Shown: positions 6,924 to 36,260 of the stretch, in pieces
Numbering within the stretch: the first letter of the stretch is position 1
Layout: each line of letters opens with the position of its first letter
Source: an uncultured Zetaproteobacteria bacterium
GTDB taxonomy: Bacteria; Pseudomonadota; Zetaproteobacteria; Mariprofundales; Mariprofundaceae
Reading direction: 5' to 3'
NCBI GenBank assembly: GCA_964449205.1
Contig: CAYVBG010000001.1
Coordinates: 1-36,260, forward strand
Length of the DNA stretch: 36,260 nt
The notes under the pieces: model-generated
Told to the model about the DNA's origin: nothing
Databases searched by the model: none
The model's input: the letters and a program-made list of their open reading frames with translations, nothing else
Translations under genes and position numbers: made by a program

Positions 6924-6926
6924 CGG

Positions 6927-10885: not shown

Positions 10886-10897
10886 GGCACACCACCT

Positions 10898-11167: not shown

Positions 11168-11178
11168 GGCCGTTCGGT

Positions 11179-11194
11179 AGCAAACCTTGGGCCA
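11179..11194 (-). promoter_or_regulatory. sigma54-type -24/-12 promoter candidate immediately upstream of fliQ
   Basis: The minus strand reads TGGCCC-AAGGT-TTGCT with exact GG-N10-GC spacing. The -12 C is at 11180, so the predicted +1 is about 11168, one nt before the fliQ ATG (11167). Confidence 0.5.
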
Positions 11195-11226
11195 AGGCGG
11201 GAGACAAGGCAGGAGATAAACGGGGG

Positions 11227-11265
11227 TTGACAATGGCGATGATACCGATAATGATTCCCACTATA
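11227..11265 (+). promoter_or_regulatory. sigma70-type promoter with overlapping Fur-box-like operator for the cupredoxin/FTR1 genes
   Basis: TTGACA at 11227..11232. GATAATGATTCCCACTATA at 11247..11265 matches 14 of 19 positions of the Fur consensus GATAATGATAATCATTATC and covers the -10 region (ATAATG / TATAAA). AAGGAG RBS at 11275..11280 lies 8 nt before ATG 11289. Confidence 0.5.
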
Positions 11266-11288
11266 AAACAAAGCAAGGAGACGAAATC

Positions 11289-11615
11289 ATGATACGCAGA
11301 CTGTTCCCGATGCTGGCAGCCGGGTTGCTGACAGCAAACGCCGCATTGGCCACCGAGGAATACCGGATTGCAATCAAGAACCACCGCTTTCAACCTGAGG
11401 AGTTGGCCGTGCCGGCCGGGGTGAAGTTCCGGCTTCGGGTGGACAACCGTGACGCCACTCCCGAGGAGTTTGAAAGCTATGATCTCAATCGCGAAAAGGT
11501 GATCGCCGGAAACAGCAGCGCCATCCTGTTCATCGGGCCGCTCAAGCCGGGAACCTATCGGTTTTTTGGCGAGTTCAATATGAAAACGGCCCGAGGCCGT
11601 CTCATCGCGAGGTGA
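11289..11615 (+). CDS. Periplasmic cupredoxin-fold protein (FtrB-like partner of FTR1 permeases)
   Basis: 108 aa with signal peptide MIRRLFPMLAAGLLTANAALA. The body YRIAIKNHRFQPEELAVPAGVKFRLRVDNRDATPEEFESYDLNREKVIAGNSSAILFIGPLKPGTYRFFGEF is typical of the small cupredoxin-like proteins encoded next to FTR1 genes. The classical Cys/His copper ligands are not evident. Confidence 0.7.
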   Translation: MIRRLFPMLAAGLLTANAALATEEYRIAIKNHRFQPEELAVPAGVKFRLRVDNRDATPEEFESYDLNREKVIAGNSSAILFIGPLKPGTYRFFGEFNMKTARGRLIAR

Positions 11616-11619
11616 GGGC

Positions 11620-12429
11620 ATGACCGCGAGCATGGTGATCGTGTTTCGCGAGGCGCTGGAGGCGGCGCTGGTGATCGGCATCGTGCTGGCTGCTACCCGC
11701 GGCCTTCCCCGGAGCCGTCTCTGGATCATGGTCGGTGGCTTTTTCGGAATCGTGGGGGCCGGTGTTGTCGCCGCCCTGGCCGAAACCATCAGCCAGGCCG
11801 CAGCCGGCATCGGGCAGGAACTGTTCAACGCGGTCGTGCTGCTGACGGCGGCCGGTGTGCTGGCCTGGACCGTGGTGTGGATGCGGGAGCATGGGCGGGC
11901 ATGGAGCGCCAGAATGACACAAGTGGGGCGTTCGGTTGCCGAGGGGGATGCCTCGGCTGGAGTGCTGGCCATTGTCGTGGGGCTGGCGGTGTTGCGGGAA
12001 GGTGCGGAAGTCGTTCTGTTTCTGTACGGGATTGCGTCCGGGGGCATGGGGGCGGGTATGGTGACCGGCGGATTGGCGGGCTTGCTGTTGGGAGCAATGG
12101 CCGGCGGGTTGATGTATGTCGGATTGCTGCGTATTCCGGCCCGGCACCTGTTTTCGGTGATTGCCGCATTGTTGACGTTGCTGGCCGCCGGTATGGCAAG
12201 CCAGGGCGCAGCCTTTTTGGTGATGGCCGATGTGCTGCCTGCTTTGGCGCAGCCCTTGTGGGATACGTCATCCATGCTGCCGCAGCAAAGCCTTGTCGGA
12301 CAGGTGCTGCACGCTCTGGCCGGGTACAGCGATCGGCCCTCGGGCATGCAGGCGCTGGCGTTTGCCGTCACCCTTTTGCTTGTGTTGTGGGCGGTGCGTG
12401 GAAGCAAGGGGCGCACCCTGGCCCAATGA
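11620..12429 (+). CDS. High-affinity iron permease, FTR1/EfeU/FtrC family
   Basis: 269-aa polytopic membrane protein. Both family-defining REXXE motifs are present: REALE (residues 10-14) and REGAE (in AVLREGAEVVLFLYG). GAGG-type RBS; start lies 4 nt after the cupredoxin gene stop. Confidence 0.85.
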   Translation: MTASMVIVFREALEAALVIGIVLAATRGLPRSRLWIMVGGFFGIVGAGVVAALAETISQAAAGIGQELFNAVVLLTAAGVLAWTVVWMREHGRAWSARMTQVGRSVAEGDASAGVLAIVVGLAVLREGAEVVLFLYGIASGGMGAGMVTGGLAGLLLGAMAGGLMYVGLLRIPARHLFSVIAALLTLLAAGMASQGAAFLVMADVLPALAQPLWDTSSMLPQQSLVGQVLHALAGYSDRPSGMQALAFAVTLLLVLWAVRGSKGRTLAQ

Positions 12430-12489
12430 AGCGATGGTGGGCGGTGCGTGACCGCCCGGGGTTCGGGATGTGCGGGGAGACGAAACATG

Positions 12490-12523
12490 TTGACATACAA
12501 AATAGATAACGATTATCATTCCT
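12490..12523 (+). promoter_or_regulatory. sigma70-type promoter with Fur-box-like operator for the outer-membrane barrel gene
   Basis: TTGACA at 12490..12495. GATAACGATTATCATTCCT at 12505..12523 matches 14 of 19 Fur consensus positions and overlaps the -10 region (TTATCA). AAGGAGG RBS at 12538..12544. Confidence 0.55.
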
Positions 12524-12549
12524 GTTATCAATCTCAAAAGGAGGCATGC

Positions 12550-13347
12550 ATGCGGATGCAATGGTTCAGAAACGAACGCCGCCGGGGGCGGAATCCCGGA
12601 AACGAAGCAAGGTGGGGTCGCGGATCGGCTTTCGGGGCCGCGATGGCGCTGTTGCTGGCAGGCGCGGCGCCCGCCGAGGCTTCCCACAAGGTTTACTCCC
12701 CCATCGTCGAGAAGGGCGAGGTGGAAATCGAGAATCGCACCCATGTCACATACGACAGCGATCCGAAAAAGGATGGGGCCGTAGTGGAAAAATACTCCGT
12801 AGGTTATGGCGTGACCGACCATACGTTTGTCGAGTTCTATGCGGTGTGGAACAAGTCTCCCGGCGGTGCGCGCAGCTACGCGGCGACTGAAGCGGTGGTC
12901 ATGCACCAGCTGTTCGAGCAGGGCGAGCGATGGCTGGATGCGGCCCTGTATTTTGAGTATGTGGCCACCGACGCCAGTCAGAACAAGCCCGACAAGCTTG
13001 AGTTCAAGGTGCTGTTGGAAAAGGGCATGGATGAGTGGCTGAACACGCTCAACGTGAACTTTGAAAAAGAGATCGGCACACGCGGATTGCAGGCGGCCGG
13101 GCTGGAGCTGGGCTACGCCTGGAAAACCAAATACCGCTTGTCTCCCCTGTTCGAGCCGGGTTTTGAGGCTTATGGCGCATTGGGCGAGATCGGAAACACC
13201 TCGTCGCCCAGCCGGCAAAAGCACCAGATCGGGCCCATGGTTTATGGAGAGTTGGGCGGTTTCGGGTATGAGGTTGGATGGTTGTTCGGCCTCACCGGAG
13301 CCACGCCCTCGGGAACGCTGCGTTTCCTGGTCGAATACGAGTTCTAG
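12550..13347 (+). CDS. Putative outer-membrane beta-barrel protein
   Basis: 265 aa from ATG 12550 (AAGGAGG 5 nt upstream). Signal peptide ...AFGAAMALLLAGAAPAEA then SHKV. It shows alternating amphipathic strands and aromatic girdle residues. The C-terminal LRFLVEYEF ends in Phe, as in OM barrels. The ORF-track start 12448 lies upstream of the promoter/RBS. Confidence 0.65.
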   Translation: MRMQWFRNERRRGRNPGNEARWGRGSAFGAAMALLLAGAAPAEASHKVYSPIVEKGEVEIENRTHVTYDSDPKKDGAVVEKYSVGYGVTDHTFVEFYAVWNKSPGGARSYAATEAVVMHQLFEQGERWLDAALYFEYVATDASQNKPDKLEFKVLLEKGMDEWLNTLNVNFEKEIGTRGLQAAGLELGYAWKTKYRLSPLFEPGFEAYGALGEIGNTSSPSRQKHQIGPMVYGELGGFGYEVGWLFGLTGATPSGTLRFLVEYEF

Positions 13348-13530
13348 GAGTCTGTCGGGCTTGGGGGATCCTGACGGGCAGGTGGGGAAGCGAGGCCAAA
13401 ATGTTCGGATTCCGAGGCGCATGGTGGCTGTGATGGAGCGGGGAAGCCGGGCATTTCGGGCCGCTGTCGCAGCCCGGCAGCAGATGCCATCCAGGTCCGG
13501 CAGACTCCCGGGTTGTGTTGCAGGCGGACG

Positions 13531-13562
13531 GGCATGGCGGCGCAAGCCGCCGTGCCTTTTTT
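13531..13562 (+). terminator. Rho-independent terminator (plus-strand orientation)
   Basis: GGCATGGCGGC-gcaa-GCCGCCGTGCC forms an 11-bp stem with one G-U pair, followed by TTTTTT (13557..13562). It lies about 185 nt after the barrel gene stop, in the convergent gap with the kinase gene. Confidence 0.75.
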
Positions 13563-13608: not shown

Positions 13609-16086
13609 TCAGGACAATGGCGTCATCAGCCCCTGCAAGGTGGCGATCAGTTCGCGATGGGCGAACGGCTTGCCGAGAAAGGCGTCGGCCGGCGCGTCGT
13701 CGTGCCCTGCGCCATACCCGGACACCAGAATCACCGGCACGTCCCTGCGGATATCCTTCATGCGGCGGCAGGCTTCCGCGCCGTTCATGCGCGGCATGTT
13801 CATGTCCAGCAACACCACCGAAAGTTCGGCCTGATGACGTTCGAACGCCTCCAGCCCCGCCAGCCCGTCTCCGGCGGTGACCACCTCCAGCCCCATGCGG
13901 GAGAGTACGTCGGCGGCCACTTCGCGCAGCACTTCCTCGTCGTCCACCACCAGCGCCATGCCGGAGAACCGGGCGGTCTCCGGCGCGGCGTCCGTATCGC
14001 GCGGCGTTTTGGCGGCGGATTCGAGCGCCGGAAACAGAATCCGGAATGTCGTGCCCCGGCCTGGCGCCGTTTGCAGATGAATCAGGCCGTGATGCTGATC
14101 CACGATACCAAGCAACGCGCTCATGCCCAACCCCCGGCCCGAACGTTTGGTGGTGAAGAAGGGATCAAAGATGCGTTGCCTTGTGGCCTCGTCCATGCCG
14201 CATCCGTCATCGCTTACCCGCAGGCATACATAATCGCCGGGTTCGCGACCGCCTCCCGCCAGGCATTCCGCCAGAAAGTCGCGATCCACCCGCATCAGGC
14301 CGGTGGCGATGACGATGCGTCCGGGGCGGTCGCCGATGGCTTCGTTGGCGTTGGTGATGAGATTCAGCGCCACCTGCTCCATCTGCGCCTCGTCTGCCCG
14401 GATCATCGGCAGATGCTCTGCCAGTTTTGTTTCGAGCCGCACTTGCTTGCCCAGCGAGACCTCGATCATGCCCGAGATCTCCCGCACGGCATCGTTCAGG
14501 CACAGTGGTCGGGGCGCGCGGACGGTGGATTGCCCGGCATAGGACAGCATTTGCCCGCAGAGCGCGCTGGCCCGCCGGCAGGCGCTCTCGATCTTGTGCA
14601 GGTGCTGGTCGGCGGGCGATGCCTTGCCGAGCTTCATCCGGGCCAGCGTTGCGTTGCCCATGATGGCGGCCAGAATGTTGTTGAAATCGTGCGCGATGCC
14701 GCCGGCCAGCACTCCAAGGCTCTCCAGTCGCTGCGCATGCTCCAGCCGGGCCCGGCGGTGCCGCTCTTCGGTGATATCGAAACTGACGCCCACCCAATAA
14801 CGCCCGCCATCTTCCACAAGCGGCGTGATGCGCCGCAGGAAATGCCTTCGTTGGCCGTTCACGTCCAGCACGCACTCGCCCTCCCAGCTCTGGCCGGAGC
14901 GAAAGCTGTCCATCATGGCGCGGCGGGCTTCATCGCTTTGGTGGCGTTCCATCAGGTTGCTCAAGCTGGTGGCCCCGAGCGTGGCGGCTTCCAGCCCCAG
15001 CGGTTGCAGGAAGGCGCGGTTGGCCCAGAGCAGGTGGCCCTGATCGTCGGCGACGAAGATGCCTTCCGACGCCTGCTCGATGGCGGCGCGCAACCGGCGC
15101 ATCCGGGTTTCGGCCTCGCGTTCGTGGCTGAGATCGTGTACGATGACCTCGGCGGCCGGCTTGCCGCGCCAGGTGATGGGAATGGCGGAGACCCGGGCCG
15201 GAAAACGGCTGCCGTCCACGCGCAGCAGCCATTCCTCGGCCGGTGGCAGCGCCACGCGCGCGGACGCCTTCAGGCGTTCCTGCACCATGTCGCGCGATTC
15301 GGATGCGACAAAATCCATCACGGCGCGGCCCACCAGCCCTTCACCGCCGGTTGCGCCAAACAGCCGTTCCGCCGCCGGGTTGCAGAACACGACCACACCC
15401 TCGCAATGCGCCACGACAGCGTCCGGCATGGCGTCGATCAGTTGGCGAAGCGCGCCCTTGGCGTGCGCATGTTCGATGGCAATCGCTGCCAGCGACGCGG
15501 CGGTTTCGATGATGTCGATTTCGGTGTCGGAGGGTTGGCGGGGCTCACCGTAATACATGGCGAAGGTGCCGAGCACTGCGCCATGTTCGTTCAGGATGGG
15601 TTGCGACCAGCAGGCGCGCAGGCCATGCGACAGCGTGAAGTCCCGAAAGGCCGACCACAAGGGGCTGTCGCCGATGTCTTCCGCGATGACGCGCTCCTTG
15701 CGGTGCGCCGCCGAGCCGCAGCATCCAACTCCGGGGCCGATGGCCAGCCCGTTGACCGCATCCGTGTATGCTTCCGGCAGGCTGGGCGCGGCGCCGCTCA
15801 CCAGGCGCTTGCCATCGGGGCCGACCAACAGCACCGAGCAGCGCATGCCGGGGCACAGGGCCTCAACCTCCCGGATCAGAGCCTCAAGCGCCCCGGTCAG
15901 GTCTTGCCCGGCGCGCATGACCGCTTCCAGCGCGCGCGGGCGCGCAGAGCCAACAGCCGCTCCCGGGCGGGTGCGGATGGCAATGGGGGTGGTTCGCCGT
16001 CGGGCGGCCGCTCTTCCATTCGCCCCTCCAATGTTCAGCTTCCGGCGGAGAAGCTTTGCAGCAAGGATGCGGCAACCAGATGCCAT
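13609..16086 (-). CDS. Cytoplasmic hybrid sensor histidine kinase (GAF-PAS-PAS-HisKA-HATPase-REC)
   Basis: GAF-like segment (LCPGMRCSVLLVGPDGKRL...GVGCCGSAAHRKERV...ACWSQPILNEHGAVLGTFAMYY). Two PAS-like segments (LIDAMPDAVV...; IEQASEGIFVADDQGHLLWANRAF...). H-box GGIAHDFNNILAAI. N/G boxes NLITNANEAI, DDGCGMD and GRGLGMS. Receiver ALVVDDEE...VLLDMNMPRMNG...GKPF. No TM helix. Start uncertain: ATG 16086 overlaps fliP by 52 nt, while ATG 15918 (MRAGQDL) would give 769 aa. Confidence 0.85.
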   Translation of the reverse strand: MASGCRILAAKLLRRKLNIGGANGRAAARRRTTPIAIRTRPGAAVGSARPRALEAVMRAGQDLTGALEALIREVEALCPGMRCSVLLVGPDGKRLVSGAAPSLPEAYTDAVNGLAIGPGVGCCGSAAHRKERVIAEDIGDSPLWSAFRDFTLSHGLRACWSQPILNEHGAVLGTFAMYYGEPRQPSDTEIDIIETAASLAAIAIEHAHAKGALRQLIDAMPDAVVAHCEGVVVFCNPAAERLFGATGGEGLVGRAVMDFVASESRDMVQERLKASARVALPPAEEWLLRVDGSRFPARVSAIPITWRGKPAAEVIVHDLSHEREAETRMRRLRAAIEQASEGIFVADDQGHLLWANRAFLQPLGLEAATLGATSLSNLMERHQSDEARRAMMDSFRSGQSWEGECVLDVNGQRRHFLRRITPLVEDGGRYWVGVSFDITEERHRRARLEHAQRLESLGVLAGGIAHDFNNILAAIMGNATLARMKLGKASPADQHLHKIESACRRASALCGQMLSYAGQSTVRAPRPLCLNDAVREISGMIEVSLGKQVRLETKLAEHLPMIRADEAQMEQVALNLITNANEAIGDRPGRIVIATGLMRVDRDFLAECLAGGGREPGDYVCLRVSDDGCGMDEATRQRIFDPFFTTKRSGRGLGMSALLGIVDQHHGLIHLQTAPGRGTTFRILFPALESAAKTPRDTDAAPETARFSGMALVVDDEEVLREVAADVLSRMGLEVVTAGDGLAGLEAFERHQAELSVVLLDMNMPRMNGAEACRRMKDIRRDVPVILVSGYGAGHDDAPADAFLGKPFAHRELIATLQGLMTPLS

Positions 16087-19053: not shown

Positions 19054-19800
19054 TCAGTGTTCCTGTTGTTCGCGTTCGCGCGCGGCGGCGCGGCGCGGGT
19101 CTTCATACAGCACGATGTCCACCCGCCGGTTGCGCGCCCGGCCATAGGGGGTTGCCTCGGTGGAGACGGGTCGGGACGGGCCGTATCCGGCGATGGACAG
19201 CCGGGCCGGATTCACGCCGGCGTCCTCCAGCACATGCAAGACTGATGCCGCCCGCGCCAGCGACAGGCTCCACGGGTCGGGCCAAGGGCTGTTCGCCGGC
19301 AGGGCCGAGGTGTCGGTATGGCCCTCGATGCGAATCAGGCCGGGCGAGGCGGCCAGCATGCGCGCCAGACGCCGCAACGCGCGCACGTGCTTTGCGTTCA
19401 GGTTCGCCTGTCCGCGCGCGAACAGTACGGCGTCCGGGATGCGAAGGATCAGGCGGTTGTTCAGAATCACCGCATTGACCTTGTGCTCCAGGGTGCTGTT
19501 TTTCAGCACGACCCTCGAGTTCTGGCGCATGGCCAGCATCAGCTCGCGCGGGGAGACGATGCGTTGGAGTTTGAACGGCTGAATCATCTGCATTTCGGTC
19601 TTGCTGCCGGCGTTCAGCACCGACACCGCCTTGCGGAAGTAGCTGGAAATGTCCGAAAGCCCGGTCTGGTCCAGTGTGGACATGGACACCAACAGGATGA
19701 AGAAGGTCAGCATCAGGCTGACCAGATCGGCGAAGGTGCCCATCCACGATTCGGTGTCGGGCAGCAGCTCCGGTTCCTGCTTTCTCCTGCGGCGCGCCAT
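19054..19800 (-). CDS. motB: Stator B subunit, PomB/MotB-like with OmpA-type peptidoglycan-binding domain
   Basis: 248 aa. WMGTFADLVSLMLTFFILLVSMS closely resembles the PomB/MotB channel helix and includes the conserved Asp. The C-terminal OmpA-like region reads RIEGHTDT...SLSLARAASVLHVLEDAGV...NRRVDIVL. Confidence 0.85.
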   Translation of the reverse strand: MARRRRKQEPELLPDTESWMGTFADLVSLMLTFFILLVSMSTLDQTGLSDISSYFRKAVSVLNAGSKTEMQMIQPFKLQRIVSPRELMLAMRQNSRVVLKNSTLEHKVNAVILNNRLILRIPDAVLFARGQANLNAKHVRALRRLARMLAASPGLIRIEGHTDTSALPANSPWPDPWSLSLARAASVLHVLEDAGVNPARLSIAGYGPSRPVSTEATPYGRARNRRVDIVLYEDPRRAAAREREQQEH

Positions 19801-19802
19801 CG

Positions 19803-20579
19803 TCAGAACCTTGTCGGTGGCGCTACGGTGGGGCGCGAAATCACGTTCAGCGTGGGTTTGACCGTGTCCTCGGGCTTGGCCGTGACCGGGCGGAACTTCA
19901 ACGTGATCTCGACACGGCGGCTCATGTCCTGGCCATCGACGGTGAGCGGGTGCTTGTCGCCCATGCCGGCGACGATCATGCGGCCGCGCGGCACGCCGCG
20001 CGTCTCCAACGCCTTGAACACGCTCATCGCGCGCGCGGCGGAGAGTTCCCAGTTCGAGGGATAGAGCGTGCCGCGCGTCGGCGTTTCGTCCGTATGCCCC
20101 TCAATGGTGATTTCCACCACCTCGGGGCGGGCGAACAGCCCGGCCAGCCGGTCCATCAGTTTGTTCGCCGCGGGGGCGAGCGCAATCTTGCCGGGCGGAA
20201 AGACGATGCGTTCCGCCAGCCGCACCCTGACCGTCTCCTTGTCCAGTGGCAGCACATGGATGGCGTGTTGCAGGCCCAGCTCCCGGGCCACGTCGGTCAG
20301 CGCCTTGGCCGTGCGCTTGGGCGCCTTGGCCCCGTCCACGATGTCACGCGCGGGCAGCGCCGGGCCCTGGCCCCGGCTCAGGTTGGCGCCACGCCGCAGC
20401 GGGCTGAAGGTGCCCGCCAGCGAACCCAGCGCGGCCAACCGCTTTTCCTCCACGATCACGGCCATGGACGTGAGCAGGATGAAGAAGGCCAGCATCTGCA
20501 TCATCAGCTCCAGAAACAGCGCCCCGGCGATGTCCTTCGGTGGCTGAATCGGATCGGGCTTTTTCTCGCGCTTGGCCAT
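19803..20579 (-). CDS. Divergent MotB-type paralog (TM helix plus OmpA-like domain) with Glu at the conserved Asp position
   Basis: 258 aa. The TM helix GALFLELMMQMLAFFILLTSMA aligns on the AFF motif with E. coli MotB YADFMTAMMAFF, placing Glu24 (GAG, 20510..20508) where the Asp sits. The OmpA-like C-terminus reads ITIEGHTDE...NWELSAARAMSVFKALETRGV...SRRVEITL. Confidence 0.75.
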   Translation of the reverse strand: MAKREKKPDPIQPPKDIAGALFLELMMQMLAFFILLTSMAVIVEEKRLAALGSLAGTFSPLRRGANLSRGQGPALPARDIVDGAKAPKRTAKALTDVARELGLQHAIHVLPLDKETVRVRLAERIVFPPGKIALAPAANKLMDRLAGLFARPEVVEITIEGHTDETPTRGTLYPSNWELSAARAMSVFKALETRGVPRGRMIVAGMGDKHPLTVDGQDMSRRVEITLKFRPVTAKPEDTVKPTLNVISRPTVAPPTRF

Positions 20580-20607
20580 GCGGTTGTGTCCGTTGTCCGT
20601 TGGCCGA

Positions 20608-21366
20608 TCAGTCGAACGAGGACTGGCGTTCCTTGGGCGGCAGGAATCCGAGCAGCTTTTGCTCCATCACCCGCGGGTTTTCGCCTGCCACCAGCGACTG
20701 GATGCCGGTGAGGATGATTTCGTGCAGCAGCAACTCGTCCTTGCTGCGCGATTTCAGCTTGGCCGCCATCGGCAGCGCCACCAGATTGGCGATCAGCGCG
20801 CCGTAGAACGTGGTCAGCAATGCCACGGCCATCGAGGGGCCGATGGATGATGGGTCAGACATGTTTTGCAACATCAACACCAGGCCCACCAGTGTGCCGA
20901 TCATGCCCATGGCCGGCGCCATCGTGCCCAGTTGCGTCAAAAGATCGGCGCCCTTGCCATGCCGATCCTTCAGTTTTTCCATCTCCATGTAGAGGATGTC
21001 CTCGATTTCGTTGGGCTCCTGCCCGTCGATGGCCATTTGCAATCCCTTGGCCATGAACGGGTTGTCCACGTCGCCCACCTTCGATTCGAGGGCCAGGATG
21101 CCTTCCTTGCGCACCACCTGCGAAAACTCGACCAGCTGCGCGATGACATCCTTGGGCGCGGGCAGCTTGTAAATGAAGGTTTTCATGGATACGCCGATGA
21201 TCTTGAGCACGTCGCCCAGCGGGTAGCTGACCAGCATCACGCCGACGGTGCCGCCGATCACGATCATGGCGGATGGAGGGTCGATGAAGCTGGAGAGACC
21301 GCTGCCGATGGCGAAGACCACCAGGCCGAAGGCAAGTACCAGACCGATGAGGGTTGCAATGTCCAC
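20608..21366 (-). CDS. motA: Stator A subunit, MotA/PomA family
   Basis: 252 aa with a GTG start and AGGAG RBS 7 nt upstream. MDIATLIGLVLAFGL... and ...GTMAPAMGMIGTLVGLVLMLQNMSDPSSIGPSMAVALLTTFYGALIANLV closely resemble PomA/MotA. Confidence 0.9.
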   Translation of the reverse strand: MDIATLIGLVLAFGLVVFAIGSGLSSFIDPPSAMIVIGGTVGVMLVSYPLGDVLKIIGVSMKTFIYKLPAPKDVIAQLVEFSQVVRKEGILALESKVGDVDNPFMAKGLQMAIDGQEPNEIEDILYMEMEKLKDRHGKGADLLTQLGTMAPAMGMIGTLVGLVLMLQNMSDPSSIGPSMAVALLTTFYGALIANLVALPMAAKLKSRSKDELLLHEIILTGIQSLVAGENPRVMEQKLLGFLPPKERQSSFD

Positions 21367-23641: not shown

Positions 23642-25333
23642 TCATGCGCGAATGCTCAGGCGTCCGGCGTATGGCGCCGGAGCACGGGAAGGGGCATCGC
23701 CGCTGTCACCGGTCTGCGTCGTGGCCGGGGTGTTCGGGCCGGATTGGCCGGCGGCGCCTTGGCTGTGCGGGCTGCTCCCCTGCCATTGGCCGCCTCCGTC
23801 ATGGCTCATGCCGGCGCTCAGCGAGAACGCGCCGGGTTGCATGCCCTGGCTTTCCAGCGCCAGACGCAATTGCGGCAGATGTTGCTGAATGGCCTGTTGC
23901 GCGGCGGGTTGTTCGGCGGTGATGTGCACCATCAATTGTTTGGCGGCGTCGGTTTGCAATGAAACATGCACCGTGCCCAGATGCGCGGGCTTGAGCCGGA
24001 TCTCCAGTCGCGCATGACCTTGGGAGGCCGAATGGGCGATCTGCTGCACGGCCTCCAATGCGTGCAGCGGGCCGAACATGCGCGAGGGGCCGCCGTGGGT
24101 TTGCGGCGTCGATGCCTGGGCGGCGTCCCCGGCCGGCGCGACGGGCGATGGCATGGCGGTCTGCGTGGCGGCTGCGGCATGGGATGTCGTGGGCGCGGTG
24201 GGTGCGGCAGCTTCCAGGGGCGGCCTGGATGTCATTGGATCCGGAGCGAGCGGGGATGATGCCGGGGCATGGGATGCCATCGGCGCGCGACCGGGCCGGG
24301 ATGACGCCTGGGGCGCGCGTTCCGGCCCGGACAATGCCTCGCCGCCGTTTGCCGGCGCATGATTCTGTCCGGGATGGTGATCGGGCTGGCGTGTTGCGGC
24401 CGGTTGCGACGCGATGTCTGCGCCTCGTGTGGTGGCGGGTCTCGGGGTGTTGCCGGCGGTCGGGCTCGGCGCAACGGCATGGGAGCGGGAATTCGCATCC
24501 TTGCGCGACGACGGGCGCTCGACCGGGGCTTGTGCCGCAGGGATCGGTGCTGTGCCGCCCTCGCCGGAGGCGATCCGCGCCGTGATGACCTGTGCGGAAA
24601 CAGGTTGTGCGGACACGGATCGCGCGATGGTTTGCGGCTCGGAGACGCCGGTTCCCGTGCGCCCCGGGGTGGTGGGGGCGGTGTCGCTCTGCCGGCGCCC
24701 GGTCGGCACATCCTCGATGGAAGCAGGCAGGGAGCGGGCGGTTTCGTTTGGGCCGGCATGGCGGGCGGTGCTTTGCGTCGCAAGGGCGGTATCGGGCCGT
24801 GCGATGTTGACTGCGGGATGGTTTTCGGTGTCGGGCTGCCGTTGGCCCGGAGACCGGGTGGACGCATGGAATGATGAGGCGATGGGGAGGGCGTCCTTTG
24901 GATTGTCTGTCTGGCTGGCGTGCGTCGGCATGGCCGGTCGGGCCGTGGCGGATTCCGCTTTCCCGGGGCGGGCCTCCTGCCGGAGGGCGATCGCCGCGAG
25001 CGCGGCCAGGGCCTCGTTGGGCAACGAACGCTTCTCGGGCTCGGCCTTGCGTTTGGCATGCGTATCGGACTGTGTGCGATGCCCCACGGTTGTGTGCGAC
25101 AGGGCGGTGGCATGCCGGGCGGCGGTCGGGTTCCGGTTTGCGCCGGCGGCATGGCGTGTTGCCGCGCCTGCGAACGCCCCGGATGCCCCCGCGCCCTTCT
25201 GCCCGCCCTTGGCCGAGAGCAGCGCCAGCAGCGCGGCGAACAATCCGCCCTTGCCGGCGTGACCTGCTTGCGTGGCCGCGGCTTGGGCGATGCCCTGCGC
25301 GGCGGAGGAGGATGCCTGGGTCTGCTCGATCAT
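23642..25333 (-). CDS. fliK: Hook-length control protein FliK
   Basis: 563 aa with N-terminal MIEQTQASSS...GGLFAALLALL and a long Pro/Ala/Thr-rich linker. The C-terminal Flg_hook domain reads HARLEIRLKPAHLGTVHVSLQTDAAKQLMVHITAEQPAAQQAIQQHLPQLRLALESQGMQ. The same-strand alternative frame 23799..25469 is Arg-rich and not protein-like. Confidence 0.9.
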   Translation of the reverse strand: MIEQTQASSSAAQGIAQAAATQAGHAGKGGLFAALLALLSAKGGQKGAGASGAFAGAATRHAAGANRNPTAARHATALSHTTVGHRTQSDTHAKRKAEPEKRSLPNEALAALAAIALRQEARPGKAESATARPAMPTHASQTDNPKDALPIASSFHASTRSPGQRQPDTENHPAVNIARPDTALATQSTARHAGPNETARSLPASIEDVPTGRRQSDTAPTTPGRTGTGVSEPQTIARSVSAQPVSAQVITARIASGEGGTAPIPAAQAPVERPSSRKDANSRSHAVAPSPTAGNTPRPATTRGADIASQPAATRQPDHHPGQNHAPANGGEALSGPERAPQASSRPGRAPMASHAPASSPLAPDPMTSRPPLEAAAPTAPTTSHAAAATQTAMPSPVAPAGDAAQASTPQTHGGPSRMFGPLHALEAVQQIAHSASQGHARLEIRLKPAHLGTVHVSLQTDAAKQLMVHITAEQPAAQQAIQQHLPQLRLALESQGMQPGAFSLSAGMSHDGGGQWQGSSPHSQGAAGQSGPNTPATTQTGDSGDAPSRAPAPYAGRLSIRA

Positions 25334-25344
25334 GCCTGCCTTGG

Positions 25345-25360
25345 AGCAGGGATTGTGCCA
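25345..25360 (-). promoter_or_regulatory. sigma54-type -24/-12 promoter candidate immediately upstream of fliK
   Basis: The minus strand reads (C)TGGCAC-AATCC-CTGCT with exact GG-N10-GC spacing. The -12 C is at 25346, so predicted +1 is about 25334, one nt before the fliK ATG (25333). Confidence 0.6.
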
Positions 25361-25407
25361 GAGTCAAACCCAATAAAATCAACAGGTTGAGGGCTGCCGG
25401 ACAAGCA

Positions 25408-25430
25408 GGGGCGGCAAGATTTGCCGCCCC
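25408..25430 (-). terminator. GC-rich hairpin downstream of the channel gene (possible terminator/insulator)
   Basis: GGGGCGGCAA-gat-TTGCCGCCCC is a perfect 10-bp stem with a 3-nt loop. No clean T-tract follows on the minus strand, so terminator function is uncertain. Confidence 0.35.
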
Positions 25431-25464
25431 GTGAGGCAAGTGTTGCCGCCTTTCCCGATGAAGT

Positions 25465-25494
25465 CGCAAAAAGGTCGTCCATGGCCTTTTTGCG
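25465..25494 (-). terminator. A/T-tract hairpin downstream of the channel gene (possible bidirectional terminator)
   Basis: CGCAAAAAGG-(10 nt)-CCTTTTTGCG is a perfect 10-bp stem whose 3' arm carries a T5 run in either orientation. Confidence 0.4.
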
Positions 25495-25609
25495 TCAAGG
25501 GGATCGAAACGCGCGGTTTCGCCCCCCCTTGCACATCCAGGACTTGCGTGGCAAGCGCATGGATGCGCGCGCCCTTTGATGGGCGCGATGATGATTGTTT
25601 ATGAAGCCA

Positions 25610-28471
25610 TCACTCCTGATCGGTGATGACGATCAGTTCCGCGATGTCCGGGCGGTGCATCAGCCAGGAATAGCGCGACACCGGATTGCCGAACGGATTC
25701 AGGATGATTTGATACTGCCGCAGGCAGGAGAAGTCGTGCTCGCGCGGAAACAGCTTGCGGATCCGGTCCTGCACCGGGTCGTGCCACTCGAATCCTTGAT
25801 GCAGCCGGTAGCCGATCCAGACATGACCGCGCTCCAGGAGGTGCGCGAACAGCGCGCCGGCGTCCTCGGGCAGATCGCCCCGCACGGTGATGGTGCGCAG
25901 ATCCATGTCGTCGTCCTCGTTGACATCGCACATCAGCTTGTCGATGGCGTGGCGCAATGTGCGTTGCAGCTCATAGGCTTCCTGGTTTTCCGACGCAAAC
26001 ATGTGGAAGCTCGTGTGGGCGATGTAGGCGCCGTAGTACTCGTCCGGCACGGTCACATGCACCTCGGTGGGCAGGTCGAAGCGATCCAGTTCCTCCTGCA
26101 ACAGGCGCGCCTGCCTGCGATCCTGAAGCAGCGGGAAGATCTGCGGTCGATCGCCATGCTCGCGCACGATGGTGATGAGGTGCGAGAGCACGGTGGCGAT
26201 GATCATGTAAGCCTGGCCGGGCATTTCCTGCGGGCGGGACAGGATGATGCGATCCGCGCCGCGCACGTGTTCGCGCAGCGCGTCCATGCGGATGAAGTTC
26301 CACCGCACGAACTTGATGTGGATGCGCTTTTCCGCTCCCGGCATTTCGCGGATGCGGCGGCGCAGGTAGTCCTCGCTTTCGGCCAGTTCGTCCGGCGTGA
26401 GCTGGTCGATGATGGTGACATGGATGTCGTCGAAGTCGTTGAGCATTCGTTTGAGAATCAGAGGCAGGGAACCCGCCCAGCCCACGATGGCCACGCGCAG
26501 GCTGGCAGGATACGCGTCCAGCGCGAGACCATGCGGCATGGGGATGGCGGGCGCGGCGTGGCTGGACTGGCTGGCACCCTTGCGAAACGCGTACACCAGC
26601 TCGCCATGCAGGTCGCGTGGCTGGATGGCCAGTCCCAGCGCGGCCGTGATGCGCATCGGCTGCGCCAGCGCACCGGATTCCATCAACTTGTAGAGCGGAT
26701 GCGCCGTGCCCGATTCGTCCACCAGCGCCACCAGCGTGACGCCGCGCGGCAGCATCGAGGCGGCCAGATGCACCATGTCCCATTTGGCGTCGGCGCCGTC
26801 CATGCGAATCACGACCCGGTCGCCGTCCCGGCGCGCCTCGCCTTCCCATTCGCAGATCTGGAGCGCGGATTCCTCGGTGCGCTCCGGAATCATCAGCCGC
26901 TCCATGACCTGGTCGAAATCCTGATAGACCAGGATATTGCGCAGCATGTTGGCGCGCACCTCGGCCTGGGACATGACCACGGTGGGCTTGTCGTAGGCCT
27001 GTTGGTTGTCCCAGCCGATTTGCAGGATGTGATGATGGCTGGAGAGCTGCGGATGCGCCAGGCTCGGCGAAGCATAGTTCAGATAGATGCCGGGATTGGT
27101 GTTTCGGATGGCCAGCAGCGAAAACATGCTGTGCGCCAGTTGCGTGGATTGCGGCACGTTGTCCGGCACGTTGACGATGGCCTGTCGCGCATGGTTCAGG
27201 TTTACGCGCCGGAGCGATTCCACCTCCATCACGTTGCCCCAGCGGTAGGACACCCACGGATGATCGAGCAGTCCTTCGGGCGGTGTGCTGCTGTCGCCCA
27301 GCAACACCAGCTTCAGCCGGGCGAACTGGCGCTCGGAGATCGTATGCAGCTTGTTCAGGATGTAGGGCGCGGCCTGCGACCAGCCCAGCATCACCATGTG
27401 ATTGCTGACATTCAGGCGCTCGTTGCGCAGTTTCTCCATCAGGCCCGACACCACCTGCGCGCCGATGCCGATGAAGAACGCGAAGATGAACACGCCGACG
27501 ATCACGGCAACGGCCGATTCCACCGCCATCTGTGCGTTGGGGGGATAGGCGATGGAGTTGCCCGGGTCGGTGAACAGCCGGAATGCGAACCAGACCTGGG
27601 CGAACAGGGTGCCGTCGGCATCGTCGATCACGCCGTCTTGCGTGTAGTCAAACGGCGGCAACAGGAAGCGCCCGATGACACCGCCCAGAATGGCCAGCAC
27701 GCCCAACAGCAGGATCACCAGATTGACCTCTTGCATGAATTGCCCTTCGCGAATGACCTCGCGCAGGTTGCGCACGATGACCAGCCACGGTCGCAGCAGC
27801 CGGATCAGGCGCAGCGCGCGCAGGGCGCTGCCGTGCGGAATGACCGCGAAGGCCGGAATCATCACCACCGTGGCGACCAGATCGATCCACCAATACACCC
27901 ATTCGGACACGCGCTCCTTGCGGTTTTCGAAGTCCATGTGGCGCATCAGCACCAGCCGGATGGCCAGTTCCACCGAGAAGAAGATGATGATGACCCACAT
28001 CAATGTGTCGTGGGCGAAGAACGACAGCAGAATCACCAGCGAGATGAACATGCCATAGGTGGGCGAGAACATGGCGCTCTGCAAATCGATGTAGCGGAAG
28101 GCGCGCAAGGTGCGCATCAGGTAGAAGGCGCGCAGCAGGCGCGCGGCGGCGGCGTCTTGCGCGTCCAGCGGAATATGGAACATGGTGATCAGCAACGAGG
28201 CCACGCCGATGATGTCCAGCACCAAAAACAGGGCGTCCAGCTTGCTGTTCAGCGAGGAACGGTAGGGATTGGTGCGAATCTTGTAGCGCATGACCGCGAT
28301 GCGCAGCCCGATCTCGATGGAAAACACGACGAACAGCACGCTGGCCAGGGCCGGATTGTGCGTGAACGAGGCCGCAATGAGCGCCAGCATCAGCACGCCG
28401 AAGCGGGGATGCATCAGCACCCATTCGATGTGATGAAACAGCAGCGGACGATCCTTCAGCACGGATTGCAT
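25610..28471 (-). CDS. Putative voltage-sensor-containing cation channel: two S1-S4-like modules, CASTOR/POLLUX-like pore, two RCK-like cytoplasmic modules
   Basis: 953 aa. Two repeats each carry S2 (FSIEIGLRIAVMR / FSVELAIRLVLMR), S3 (LDALFLVLDIIG / WWIDLVATVVMIP) and S4 (RLLRAFYLMRTLRAFR / LRALRLIRLLRPWLVIVRNLR). Then come S5 (VNLVILLLGVLAILGGVIG), pore helix/filter WFAFRLFTDPGNSIAY, and S6 (AVAVIVGVFIFAFFIGIGAQVV). Two Rossmann-like starts follow: HMVMLGWSQAAP (about aa 358) and RVAIVGWAGSLP (about aa 659). GAGG RBS 6 nt before the ATG. Confidence 0.8.
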   Translation of the reverse strand: MQSVLKDRPLLFHHIEWVLMHPRFGVLMLALIAASFTHNPALASVLFVVFSIEIGLRIAVMRYKIRTNPYRSSLNSKLDALFLVLDIIGVASLLITMFHIPLDAQDAAAARLLRAFYLMRTLRAFRYIDLQSAMFSPTYGMFISLVILLSFFAHDTLMWVIIIFFSVELAIRLVLMRHMDFENRKERVSEWVYWWIDLVATVVMIPAFAVIPHGSALRALRLIRLLRPWLVIVRNLREVIREGQFMQEVNLVILLLGVLAILGGVIGRFLLPPFDYTQDGVIDDADGTLFAQVWFAFRLFTDPGNSIAYPPNAQMAVESAVAVIVGVFIFAFFIGIGAQVVSGLMEKLRNERLNVSNHMVMLGWSQAAPYILNKLHTISERQFARLKLVLLGDSSTPPEGLLDHPWVSYRWGNVMEVESLRRVNLNHARQAIVNVPDNVPQSTQLAHSMFSLLAIRNTNPGIYLNYASPSLAHPQLSSHHHILQIGWDNQQAYDKPTVVMSQAEVRANMLRNILVYQDFDQVMERLMIPERTEESALQICEWEGEARRDGDRVVIRMDGADAKWDMVHLAASMLPRGVTLVALVDESGTAHPLYKLMESGALAQPMRITAALGLAIQPRDLHGELVYAFRKGASQSSHAAPAIPMPHGLALDAYPASLRVAIVGWAGSLPLILKRMLNDFDDIHVTIIDQLTPDELAESEDYLRRRIREMPGAEKRIHIKFVRWNFIRMDALREHVRGADRIILSRPQEMPGQAYMIIATVLSHLITIVREHGDRPQIFPLLQDRRQARLLQEELDRFDLPTEVHVTVPDEYYGAYIAHTSFHMFASENQEAYELQRTLRHAIDKLMCDVNEDDDMDLRTITVRGDLPEDAGALFAHLLERGHVWIGYRLHQGFEWHDPVQDRIRKLFPREHDFSCLRQYQIILNPFGNPVSRYSWLMHRPDIAELIVITDQE

Positions 28472-28529
28472 GGGCGACCTCGTTGCGGGGAATGAGGATG
28501 ATGCCGGCCAGACACGGGGACGGGCCGGT

Positions 28530-29195
28530 TCAGGGATTCAGCGACGCAATGCGCCGGGTCAGCGCCTGGCTGATTTTCACCGCCTGCTCGGGCGGCAGGA
28601 AGGACAGGATCTTGCCCACCTTCTTTTCGTCCATGCGCGAGAAGATGCGCACCACGATGGGCAGCTCCATGCGCGCGATGACCGGCGCGGCCTTGGCCGG
28701 CTTCATGCCCTCGTAAACGGCGGTCAGGCGCTTGATTTTCTTGTCGTTGATGCTTTTTTCCTGCGCCAGCATGTCTTGCAGGCGGGCTTCCATGTCTTCC
28801 AGTTCCTTGATGCGTTTCGCGGCCTTTTGCTCCATGTCGGCCACGGCCTGTTCACGCGCGTCCAGTTTCCGGCGGCGCTCCTCCAACTGTTGCTTGAGCT
28901 CGCGCAGGCCGAGCAGGGCCTTGCGTTCGGTTTCGCAGGCCATGGCGTCGTCCGGCGTCCAGGGCGAGGCATGGGCCCGGCGCACCAATACAGGCGTCAC
29001 GGGCGCGGCGGCGGTTGCGGCCTGTCCGGTCGATGGCGGCGTGGCGGGAGGTTCGTGGGGTGTGGCCGGGCCCGCGTCGGCCGCCGGAATGGCTTGCGTG
29101 CCGGCGGCATCGTCGCCATGGAGCAGGCCAAGCGCCAGACGACCGCCCGCCACCGCTGTGAGCAGCAGCATCAGGGTCAGCATGCGGGCGCGCAT
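28530..29195 (-). CDS. YlxF/MotE-family flagellar protein (MgtE-N-like C-terminal domain)
   Basis: 221 aa with signal/anchor MRARMLTLMLLLTAVAGG and a coiled-coil segment LKQQLEERRRKLDAREQAVADMEQKAAKRIKELEDMEARL. The C-terminal region reads LTAVYEGMKPAKAAPVIARMELPIVVRIFSRMDEKKVGKILSFLPPEQAVKISQAL. It occupies the fliJ-downstream slot held by ylxF in Bacillus-type loci. Confidence 0.7.
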   Translation of the reverse strand: MRARMLTLMLLLTAVAGGRLALGLLHGDDAAGTQAIPAADAGPATPHEPPATPPSTGQAATAAAPVTPVLVRRAHASPWTPDDAMACETERKALLGLRELKQQLEERRRKLDAREQAVADMEQKAAKRIKELEDMEARLQDMLAQEKSINDKKIKRLTAVYEGMKPAKAAPVIARMELPIVVRIFSRMDEKKVGKILSFLPPEQAVKISQALTRRIASLNP

Positions 29196-29200
29196 GCTGT

Positions 29201-29638
29201 TTAACGCTCCGCGCCGCGGACGATGGCGGCGCGGTCATCGTCCTCGCGTTGTTGGCGGATGTCCTGTTTGCGACGATGCGCCCGTTGCAGGCGCGCTTCC
29301 ATCCGGCCCAGCGCCTTGTCGCGGCCGTCCAGTTCGAGCCAGCGGCGCAGCACCGCCTGCTCCTGTTCGTGCACCCGATCCATTTGCGCTTCCAGGCGCG
29401 CGATGCGAGCCTGATGTTCGCGCATCATGTCGTCCATCAACACCAGCATGCCGGCGCGCGCGCCGGTTCTGAGCGTGTGTTCGCGCTGGCGGGCCAGCTC
29501 CTCCAGTCGGGCCTCGGTTTCATTCATGCGCTGCATGATCTCGTGCCGTTCACGGCCGAGCGCGGCCAGTTCCTGTCCGGCCCGCTGGCGCTCGCGTTCG
29601 CCGAGCTTTTGCAGAATCCGGTGCGGCGTCAGGCGCAT
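29201..29638 (-). CDS. fliJ: Flagellar export chaperone/stalk protein FliJ
   Basis: 145-aa all-coiled-coil, Arg/Glu-rich protein located immediately after fliI. Confidence 0.8.
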   Translation of the reverse strand: MRLTPHRILQKLGERERQRAGQELAALGRERHEIMQRMNETEARLEELARQREHTLRTGARAGMLVLMDDMMREHQARIARLEAQMDRVHEQEQAVLRRWLELDGRDKALGRMEARLQRAHRRKQDIRQQREDDDRAAIVRGAER

Positions 29639-35115: not shown

Positions 35116-35552
35116 CGACCTCCTTCCTGGATCACCTTGGACAGGCCGCTCAGACGGCCTTTGAGCAGGCGCAGGGTGAGTTCATGCATCAACTGGTTCT
35201 CGGCCATATCGACCATCTCCTGCTGGACGTTCACGGTGTTGCCGTCCATGCGCTGCATGGCATCGGAGCGACCGGCCGACAGGCGCAGCCAGGGGGAAGG
35301 CGGCGCGTCGCCGGCGGCCATGTGGCCGGGAGCGGTGCGCGCCAGATGGCCCGGCGCGGCGCGGGCTGTCCGGAGCTGCCGGGCCAGGAAATCCTCGAAG
35401 CGGCGCGTGTCCGCCTTGTAGTTTGGCGTGTCTGCGTTGGCGATGTTGGTTGCGAACACCGTCTGCATCCGCTCGCGTGCGGCCAGCGCCGCAGCCAGCG
35501 TCTGGAAGCTGTGCCCGAAGAGAGGGTTCATTCCGGCGTATGTCGTCATCAT
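35112..35552 (-). CDS. flgB: Flagellar proximal rod protein FlgB
   Basis: 146 aa: ...ERMQTVFATNIANADTPNYKA... then GNTVNVQQEMVDMAENQLMHELTLRLL. ATGA overlaps at both ends (with the activator stop and the flgC start). Confidence 0.92.
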   Translation of the reverse strand: MMTTYAGMNPLFGHSFQTLAAALAARERMQTVFATNIANADTPNYKADTRRFEDFLARQLRTARAAPGHLARTAPGHMAAGDAPPSPWLRLSAGRSDAMQRMDGNTVNVQQEMVDMAENQLMHELTLRLLKGRLSGLSKVIQEGGR

Positions 35553-36260
35553 GTTCCTCCTGCCTGGCCCGCTTCCGGCATGGATGCCGCGCGGCCGCGG
35601 TCGTTCGCGCGGGATGTCGCTCCGGATTCAGCAAGCGCCGTGCCAGCGCTGGCGTCCATGTCGTGCAGCTTGTTGCGCAAGGTGCGAATGCTGATGCCGA
35701 GCAGCCGTGCGGCCTCGGTGCGGTTGCCGCGCACATGCCGGAGCGTTTCGCGGATCAGCGCGCGCTCCATGTCGCGGATGCTCATGCCGGCGGCAATGGC
35801 CGGCGCAGCCTCGTGCGCCGGCGCGACGCGCAAGGTTTCGCCCAGTCCCAGATGTCCGCGCTGGATTCGTCCGTTTTCGGCCAGCAGAAAGGCACGATGC
35901 ATGCAGTTTTCCAGCTCGCGCGCATTGCCGGGCCAGTCGTGGGAGGTCAGCGCGGCGATGGCGTCGGCGTCCGGTTCCGGGGCGGGGCGACCATACATGG
36001 CCGCAAACCTGTCAAGAAAATGACGGGCCAGAGGCTCGATGTCCCCCGGGCGGTCGCGCAGTGCCGGCAGGCGCACAGTGACGACGTTCAGGCGGTAATA
36101 CAAATCCTGACGGAACTGTCCTTCGGCCACGGTCTGCTCGATATCGCGGTTGCTGGTGGCGATGATGCGCACGTCCACCTTCACGGGCGCGCGCCCCCCG
36201 AGCCGGTCCACCTCGCCTTCCTGCAACACGCGCAGCAGTTTGGCCTGAAGGTGGAGCGGC
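35549..36260 (-). CDS. sigma54-dependent enhancer-binding transcriptional activator (5' end outside window)
   Basis: The frame stays open to the window edge: PLHLQAKLLRVLQEGEVDRLGG...RIIATSNRDI...FRQDLYYRLNVV...DWPGNARELEN (AAA+ sigma54-interaction domain). The C-terminal Fis-type HTH reads NRTEAARLLGISIRTLRNKL. Its stop overlaps the flgB ATG. Confidence 0.9.
   Translation of the reverse strand, partial: PLHLQAKLLRVLQEGEVDRLGGRAPVKVDVRIIATSNRDIEQTVAEGQFRQDLYYRLNVVTVRLPALRDRPGDIEPLARHFLDRFAAMYGRPAPEPDADAIAALTSHDWPGNARELENCMHRAFLLAENGRIQRGHLGLGETLRVAPAHEAAPAIAAGMSIRDMERALIRETLRHVRGNRTEAARLLGISIRTLRNKLHDMDASAGTALAESGATSRANDRGRAASMPEAGQAGGT

Follow-up and report, generated by a model that had tools for sequence, protein, structure and literature searches.

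What is a gene for a large, channel-like membrane protein doing among the genes of a flagellar operon? The question is raised by a stretch of 36,260 nucleotides (nt) from an uncultured Zetaproteobacteria bacterium of the Mariprofundaceae (assembly GCA_964449205.1, contig CAYVBG010000001.1), called here, at its full length, the window. In it an open reading frame (ORF) of 953 amino acids (aa) plus stop lies at 25610..28471 among flagellar genes. A first-pass annotation, made from the sequence alone, had described the product as an ion channel with two voltage sensors in tandem, a single pore and a double RCK domain. The ORF was found in place, with the refinement that it lies on the minus strand (as do all window features described below), and every peptide motif quoted from its product was found in the protein. 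We regard it as rather probable that the ORF encodes a subunit of a voltage-gated, RCK-regulated cation channel, which belongs to a sigma-54 motility regulon and signals to motility.

The channel protein and its two sensor bundles

Is the ORF a real gene? It starts with ATG, a GAGG ribosome-binding site lies 6 nt 5′ of this codon, and the N-terminus is kept among homologs. A search of 5.8 billion proteins (E <= 1e-3) gave 171 homologs; most of the 120 matches listed are full length and few are partial, and the source names given for these are all Zetaproteobacteria, Mariprofundus or Ghiorsea. Their annotations are generic, for instance "ion transporter" or "voltage-gated potassium channel". 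A spurious ORF of a GC-rich genome was ruled out because hundreds of conserved homologs exist. The family members picked for alignment are 46-84% identical to the query, and residue conservation was scored over the resulting 43 sequences.

An exhaustive profile search with this family detected 793 proteins at E <= 1e-3, which form three groups. The first is a handful of full-length 50%-identity representatives. Members of the second are distant relatives that match from about position 16 onward and thus have two sensors as well (P0136, P0137, P0139, P0141, P0150, P0162, and P0194). The third is large; its proteins are about 800-870 aa long, are labelled Ion_trans plus Slo-like_RCK or TrkA_N by Pfam, and align with the profile at positions ~141-465 only, which cover one sensor, the pore and RCK1. 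For the window protein itself Pfam and NCBIfam gave next to nothing, so the domain assignment was built from family profiles.

Hydropathy and a full-chain AlphaFold2 model (pLDDT 81.6, pTM 0.79) agree on eleven membrane helices in a 4 + 4 + 3 pattern, of which ten are transmembrane and one is a pore helix. The first voltage-sensor domain (VSD1, residues 20-128, 28088..28414) has helices at 22-34, 40-64, 74-97, and 107-127. The second (VSD2, residues 137-240, 27752..28063) has them at 137-152, 156-178, 184-203, and 214-242, and a short helix break joins its S4 almost directly to S5 (244-270). In VSD1, S2 carries F50-x-x-E53...R57 within FSIEIGLR (residues 50-57), S3 carries D86, and S4 carries R111/R114/R120/R123/R126 within RLLRAFYLMRTLRAFR (residues 111-126). 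The corresponding residues of VSD2 are F165-x-x-E168...R172 in S2 (FSVELAIR, 165-172), D197 in S3, and R218/R221/R224/R227 in S4 (LRALRLIRLLR, 217-227). In Kv (voltage-gated K+) channels the gating-charge transfer centre is recognised by S2 F-x-x-E together with an Asp in S3. Every one of these VSD1 and VSD2 residues, and F164 in addition, is invariant in the 43 sequences.

Is the first bundle really a sensor? Aligned by hhalign, VSD1 and VSD2 are homologous with 97% probability (E = 8e-11; 93 aligned columns at 24% identity). A hidden Markov model (HMM) of VSD1 only matches the sensor region of the single-VSD Ion_trans+RCK relatives with i-E values down to 7e-7, and its hhalign comparison with the profile of these relatives also reaches 97%. 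In a Foldseek search with a separate model of residues 1-135 (VSD1 only, pLDDT 75.6) nearly all top matches were voltage sensors, with probabilities up to 0.95: NavAb, Nav1.7-VSD4-NavAb, CavAb, Kv3.1, TRPM8, Ci-VSP, and CatSper. Pfam Ion_trans had no match in the window protein at E <= 1; it matches three of the 43 family members (best 9e-14) and, in paralogs, residues 156-339 at 31-39 bits versus a cut-off of 25, which the single-VSD relatives also pass.

If VSD1 is a sensor bundle, does it take part in gating? Only VSD2 might gate the pore, with VSD1 kept as a voltage-insensitive structural or regulatory bundle; the protein would then be a conventional RCK channel with six transmembrane helices and an N-terminal extension, and VSD1 would resemble the S0 helix of BK or, of the two repeats in two-pore channels (TPCs), the one that is less voltage-sensitive. 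In its favour, VSD1 has no pore domain joined to it, its S4 has Tyr117 where a fourth arginine would be expected, and the repeats of TPCs are reported to divide the labour between PIP2 binding and voltage sensing (PMC9963007). However, VSD1 keeps five S4 arginines, the S2 F-x-x-E and the S3 Asp in 43/43 sequences, and is as conserved as VSD2 (67% versus 68% identity to the query, as against 50-53% for the RCK domains). It is also the most confidently modelled part of the membrane region (pLDDT 82-93), and the eight-residue linker between VSD1 and VSD2 is the best-conserved segment of the whole protein, with 83% identity. Gating by VSD2 only is, in our view, a rather unlikely explanation.

Several observations weigh against the assignment of domains. 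In Pfam and NCBIfam nothing matches the window protein above cut-off, and its best score there is 14 bits for Slo-like_RCK, where the cut-off is 24. The pLDDT is only 56-76 from the second S4 to S6, and the structure models are monomers, which bears on the placement of VSD1 in a tetramer. No Foldseek match of the VSD1-only model reached E <= 1e-3, the E-values being 0.2-3. Still, repeat homology, the VSD1 HMM, the fold matches, the invariant residues and the equal conservation of the two bundles lead us to conclude from these comparisons that there are indeed two sensors in tandem and that the first is no decayed relic. The overall order S1-S4, S1-S4, S5-P-S6, RCK1, RCK2 we consider very probably right.

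Tandem sensors are not exclusive to Zetaproteobacteria; this possibility was ruled out by P0194 (L082:8001-10703), a protein of 900 aa with two very similar S1-S4 repeats and WWAFRQVQDPGN. Its locus has a DUF1501 neighbour (possibly Planctomycetota) and no flagellar genes. Because the two repeats are so alike, the sequence suggests that the sensor was duplicated independently in this other lineage.

The gene among motility genes

The window genes run in the order activator, flgB, flgC, fliE, fliF, fliG, fliH, fliI, fliJ, MgtE_N gene, channel, fliK, flgD, flgE. The MgtE_N-domain gene (28530..29195) lies directly upstream of the channel gene and is FlbB/YlxF-like, with the collar protein FlbB as its best NCBIfam match, below cut-off; the downstream neighbour is fliK (23642..25333). 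Mapping of these neighbours bears out the first placement of the channel gene, between a ylxF/MotE-like gene and fliK on the same strand. The order flgB-flgC-fliE-fliF-fliG-fliH-fliI-fliJ-(MgtE_N protein)-fliK-flgD-flgE is that of Bacillus, where fliJ is followed by ylxF and fliK. Unlike the Bacillus-type fla/che locus, the window has a channel gene of 2.9 kb between the ylxF/flbB-like gene and fliK, and its units appear to be driven from sigma-54 motifs.

Where does the unit containing the channel gene begin and end? The 58-nt gap between it and the flbB/ylxF-like gene (28472..28529) has no sigma-70, sigma-54 or terminator motif on the gene strand, in agreement with the first-pass annotation; a simple sigma-70 and terminator scan found no more than chance. 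A sigma-54 -24/-12 motif, TGGCACGGCGCTTGCT, is located at 35630..35645, about 80 nt before the flgB ATG and inside the 3′ end of the ORF of the sigma-54 activator (35549-36229, cut by the window end). It is likely to be the promoter of the flgB...fliJ-flbB-channel unit. A second motif, TGGCACAATCCCTGCT, is found just before fliK at 25345..25360, and fliK-flgD-flgE would follow the channel unit under this motif of their own.

The 276-nt spacer between the channel gene and fliK (25334..25609) folds into about six hairpins (z = -4.66 versus shuffled controls). It includes two GGCAA-N3-TTGCC palindromes, and related loci have longer palindromes there. This spacer may act as a terminator and/or as a binding region for the sigma-54 activator; Rfam had no match in the window. 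The first-pass annotation had made the channel gene the last of an operon running from the activator through flgB to fliJ. The positions of the sigma-54 motifs and the structured spacer fit, and support, a terminal place of the channel gene in the unit. The proposed start fits less well: as the first motif falls within the end of the activator ORF, the operon probably begins at flgB and not at the activator.

Ahead of the fliK ATG, the window and loci L008, L012, and L021 have a module in common that consists of a long palindrome, TTGATTTATA, and a -24/-12-like element. From the end of the sigma-54 motif of fliK to the ATG given by the ORF (25333) there are only about 12 nt, and this spacing recurs in the same three loci. 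The fliK mRNA may thus have almost no leader; otherwise translation starts elsewhere or the promoter call is wrong.

Is this arrangement a peculiarity of one genome? We scanned one genome per species and obtained 71 channel-family loci, M. ferrooxydans PV-1 among them. Sixty-nine are labelled Zetaproteobacteria or a lower taxon; the exceptions are one Gammaproteobacteria and one Proteobacteria metagenome-assembled genome. Neighbours were identified by tblastn, for which the queries were the flagellar proteins of the window and, from one locus, its chemotaxis proteins. Most members of the window clade (at least 52% identity) show fliF-fliG-fliH-fliI-fliJ-flbB-like-CHANNEL-fliK-flgD-flgE, and the synteny of the window is the same in M. 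micogutta, M. erugo, and M. ferrooxydans PV-1. Ghiorsea has kept CHANNEL-fliK-flgD-flgE; its upstream genes are unrelated and fliF-fliJ are absent there. A paralog clade with 47-49% identity stands directly before cheY-cheA-cheW in 11 of 12 loci, and two mixed loci (L055 and L078) have the order fliI/flbB-like-CHANNEL-che. The strain M. erugo P3 has three channel paralogs (L042, L047, and L064). At L081, by way of exception, the channel gene is 2.4 kb from an upstream fliC-flaG-fliD-fliS cluster and is followed by a second paralog.

In numbers, an flbB-like gene lies directly upstream in 29 of the 61 loci with at least 900 nt of upstream sequence; downstream, fliK was found in 21 and cheY in 8 of the 47 loci with at least 2.6 kb. 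Where both flanks are present, the channel gene adjoins fliJ/flbB-like, fliK-flgD-flgE or cheY-cheA-cheW in 32/42 loci. The flagellar linkage proposed at first thus recurs across the Zetaproteobacterial loci sampled. No flagellar structural genes, cheA or cheW were found near the single-sensor relatives in 68 metagenomic loci (676 kb in total), so the link to motility is specific to the Zetaproteobacterial tandem-sensor group.

The distribution of sigma-54 motifs follows the same lines. A strict motif, TGGCA-N6-TTGCT, was scanned over the 71 loci (2.1 Mb counting both strands) and occurs 55 times; 54 of the sites share the strand of the channel gene. With few exceptions they lie before flgB, in operon-type loci, or directly before the channel gene. 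In the latter loci the motif stands 46-150 nt 5′ of the channel start where no flbB-like gene directly precedes; in L040 and L041 it lies about 410 nt 5′, ahead of a small ORF. Altogether 19 loci have the strict motif within 460 nt upstream of the channel gene, and none of the 19 also has an upstream flbB-like gene. Relaxing the motif gave positives in 24 of 60 upstream regions, versus a background of 0.034 per region (P ~6e-20).

Could all this go back to one accident? The gene may be that of an ordinary cation or K+-homeostasis channel without a specific part in motility, which landed between flbB and fliK by chance in some ancestor and was then simply inherited. Relatives that have one VSD and this pore loop are widespread and, as said, had no flagellar or chemotaxis neighbours in 68 loci. 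Some clade members in Zetaproteobacteria stand alone among unrelated genes (L079 and L080), and six loci with both flanks have neither a motility gene nor the strict sigma-54 motif (L052, L063, L064, L072, L076, and L077). These loci speak against membership in a motility regulon, and so does the wider use of sigma-54, which also controls non-flagellar genes; the promoter motif alone is thus no proof of flagellar regulation. However, the linkage outlasts rearrangement, the Ghiorsea arrangement having survived the loss of the upstream genes. A separate paralog clade has its place at the chemotaxis operon, the mixed loci combine both settings, copies with no upstream flbB-like gene often carry flgB-type sigma-54 motifs, and a distant paralog stands beside PilT-type ATPases. 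We consider chance insertion unlikely and, judging by genomic context, the channel gene is quite probably a member of the motility regulon.

Pore, gating ring and known channels

The two sensors are followed by one pore domain only, S5-P-S6 (residues 241-350, 27422..27751), as had been first read. Hydropathy and the model place S5 at 244-270, the pore helix at 289-301 and S6 at 313-350, and neither gave a second pore loop in the chain. Alignment conservation marks a filter-like motif, T301-D302-P303-G304-N305 (27557..27571), within WFAFRLFTDPGNS (residues 294-306). The K+ filter TVGYG is not found in the channel, whose filter position reads FTDPGNS. Residues W294, F295, F297, R298, D302, and N305 are invariant in the 43 sequences and T301, P303, and G304 are conserved in at least 90%, so that W-F-x-F-R-x-x-T-D-P-G-N is near-invariant in the channel clade. 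The pore loop of the single-sensor family reads WW[AS]FRQxxDPGN and that of the distant tandem paralogs DPG[TSAV].

The filter had been likened at first to that of CASTOR/POLLUX. The predicted CASTOR filter is AD265S(A)GNHA; CASTOR has high Ca2+ selectivity, and its D265N mutant gives no current (PMC6697748). In a comparison by motif, TDPGN shares D, G, and N with this published filter, and the D-x-G-N likeness thus appears real. It should be weighed against this likeness that it spans only four residues and that CASTOR has no voltage sensor.

A departure from this filter was observed at L081:8001-13812, a locus with a tandem pair of channel paralogs. In the second of them, which is 955 aa long and 45% identical to the window protein, TDPGN is replaced by MAAGN and the filter Asp is thus lost; P0121 carries the same change. 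Such a pair of DPGN and MAAGN paralogs may, by its sequence, point to heteromeric channels.

Behind S6 the AlphaFold2 model has two alpha/beta domains. The first is RCK1-like by profile and fold (residues 351-640, 26552..27421), and the second is RCK2-like by fold match (residues 641-953, 25613..26551). Their Rossmann starts read VMLGWSQAAP (residues 360-369) and VAIVGWAGSLP (660-670), and neither contains GxGxxG. The family profile matches BK (5tj6, E = 0.001) from S2/S3 of the second sensor through S6 and RCK1, and in its RCK1 part matches DMI1 (E = 0.0014), MthK, and CASTOR. These sequence matches to the PDB are weak (E-values 0.001-0.05), which counts against them.

The fold comparison went further. 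With the whole model, Foldseek matched Slo2.2 (8hkq, 1.7e-16) and Slo1 (5tj6, 8e-16), the gating rings of Slo2.2, Slo1, and BK together spanning E = 1e-16 to 1e-11. It also matched the CASTOR ring (6o7a, E = 2.5e-15, target TM-score 0.72), the DMI1 ring (7vm8, target TM-score 0.69), and GsuK. The tandem RCK ring that was proposed at the outset agrees with these results. Pfam Slo-like_RCK matches 19 of the 43 family members (best 1e-4), while Castor_Poll_mid has no match in the query or in any of the 43. The hhalign comparison of RCK1 with RCK2 was not significant (E = 0.017), so the second RCK is assigned by fold match only.

A protein that does not conduct and acts as a voltage sensor, its RCK-like ring relaying a conformational signal to flagellar or chemotaxis proteins, would suit the non-canonical filter and the paralog lineage without the filter Asp, but it is highly improbable. 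Conservation in the clade, and likewise in hundreds of distant relatives, is among the highest in the pore helix, in the DPGN loop and in S6 with its many glycines (GVFIFAFFIGIG), and the whole-chain fold matches conducting Slo channels.

With which known channels, then, should a conducting channel of this kind be compared? The Slo channels (BK/Slo1 and Slo2.2/KNa1.1) are alike in having a sensor bundle, a short S4-S5 connection, one pore and tandem RCK1-RCK2 on one chain, and they provide the best whole-chain fold matches and the best PDB sequence matches. The window channel differs from them in the absence of TVGYG, in a full extra S1-S4 instead of the single S0 helix, in its bacterial origin, and in a sequence identity of only 10-13%. 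Membership in the Slo family proper was ruled out, as TVGYG is absent and the membrane part differs.

CASTOR/POLLUX/DMI1 share with the channel the gating-ring fold and the RCK1 profile, and their acidic, non-K+ filter is, by its D-x-G-N motif, apparently similar. However, CASTOR has four predicted transmembrane segments and no voltage sensor (PMC6697748), as against ten and a pore helix in the window channel, which moreover has Pro and not Ser/Ala after the filter Asp. The CASTOR family proper was also ruled out, by the undetected Castor_Poll_mid domain and the different membrane part. TPC1 and TPC2 have two voltage-sensor domains per polypeptide, as does the window channel. Each of their sensors has its own pore and they form dimers, whereas two sensors here share one pore; a TPC-like architecture was ruled out because there is only one S5-P-S6.

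By sequence, the true family of the channel is the bacterial "DPGN" group of Ion_trans+RCK proteins. Its single-VSD members of ~800-870 aa are true sequence relatives (profile E 1e-38 to 1e-15) and have the WWxFRQxxDPGN pore loop and the RCK region in common with the window channel; they differ in their single sensor and in the absence of flagellar or chemotaxis neighbours. No curated NCBIfam model matched this single-VSD group, for which no search for publications was made. The literature searched held nothing relevant on a tandem-VSD single-pore channel or on a flagellar channel in Mariprofundus.

To our knowledge neither a VSD-VSD-pore-RCK-RCK layout, nor the DPGN filter family, nor a non-stator channel recurrent in flagellar or chemotaxis operons is known. 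The parts of the protein are familiar; these three features are what appears to be new, none of them being described in the literature searched.

What would such a channel be good for? A natural VSD-VSD-pore chain would show how two serial sensors couple to one gate, and two sensors that both have full gating-charge signatures are of interest for channel biophysics. The DPGN pore loop marks a large, uncurated family of bacterial channels and, resembling the CASTOR/DMI1 filter, could make this family a tractable system for that filter. A non-stator ion channel recurs in flagellar and chemotaxis operons behind flagellar-type sigma-54 motifs, which makes the old idea of a voltage or Ca2+ input to bacterial motility directly testable. 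The hosts are microaerophilic iron oxidisers that must hold their position in opposing gradients. Taken together, the layout and the context hint that membrane voltage may be wired into swimming.

The first-pass annotation had suggested, as an inference, that the channel could tune local ion-motive force or report membrane potential to the motor. The specific physiological mechanism can be sketched only tentatively, by analogy. Subunits would assemble as a tetramer around one pore and, with two sensors each, would bring eight sensors to it. A change of membrane potential would move S4 of VSD2, which would gate S5 via a short, Slo-like, non-swapped connection. VSD1 would also respond and modulate VSD2 through the conserved linker of about eight residues that leads to S1 of VSD2, and a cytoplasmic ligand bound to the RCK ring would bias the gate. 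The open pore would pass cations, plausibly Ca2+ or non-selectively if the D-x-G-N loop works as in CASTOR. The machinery of flagellar export, of the motor or of chemotaxis would then sense the resulting change of voltage or ions.

Two papers report, respectively, that the flagellar export gate is activated by membrane voltage (PMC8179193) and that the ion-motive force driving the motor is dynamic (PMC8076557), which makes it plausible that a signal from the channel acts on motility. Signalling of this kind would suit an iron oxidiser that lives in gradients and links its energy state to swimming.

A bolder and rather speculative extension, which we think is probably not the case, is that Zetaproteobacteria run an excitable-membrane module for motility, centred on an eight-sensor, voltage- and ligand-gated channel of the Ca2+ type co-expressed with the basal body. 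If it were true, the paralogs at the chemotaxis operon, some of them with a canonical Kv channel, and the distant paralog next to genes for type IV pilus retraction ATPases would belong to the module. Changes of membrane potential or energy state would become ion signals that steer swimming or motor assembly, and the channel field would gain, in VSD-VSD-pore, a gating architecture of a new kind.

Other genes of the window and of related loci

Upstream of the flbB/ylxF-like gene, fliJ occupies 29201-29638. After flgE the window continues with MotA, two MotB-type genes, fliL, fliM, fliP, and a hybrid histidine kinase, and then with flhB, flhA, flhF, a FliA-like sigma factor, flgF, and flgG; fliQ and fliR were not located within the window. 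The stator locus (19054-21366) consists of one MotA gene and two consecutive genes of the MotB/OmpA type. The best NCBIfam match of MotA is PomA, with 277 bits where the cut-off is 341. Of the MotB genes, the first (19803-20579) matches the plug only weakly, whereas the match of the second (19054-19800) is strong.

The hybrid histidine kinase gene (13609-16086) encodes GAF-PAS-PAS-HisKA-HATPase-REC and, lying within the flagellar cluster, slightly overlaps the adjoining fliP. It is followed at 10359-13545 by long ORFs with no Pfam match: 12268-13545 (425 aa) and 10359-12500 (713 aa, TTG start). The latter may be spurious in this sequence of 65% GC. A gene for a DUF6115 protein (3589-4050) lies directly 3′ of the gene for the FliA-like sigma factor (4047-4979).

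Some related loci have neighbours of other kinds. At L002:7735-9837 (the same place as L047) a Kv channel gene and a PilZ-domain gene lie beside the chemotaxis-linked channel paralog, and likewise at L051 and L078, where the Kv gene sits between the channel gene and cheY. This Kv protein is a canonical voltage-gated K+ channel of 340 aa, with the filter TVGYGD and the S4 LMRLFRLIRIIRL. The gene of the distant tandem-sensor paralog P0136 (filter DPGT, L005:1326-8508) divergently adjoins three genes for PilT/T2SSE-type ATPases, and PilT-like matches were found upstream at L033, about 6900-7200. At L083 the gene of P0137 is followed by that of a single-domain response regulator.

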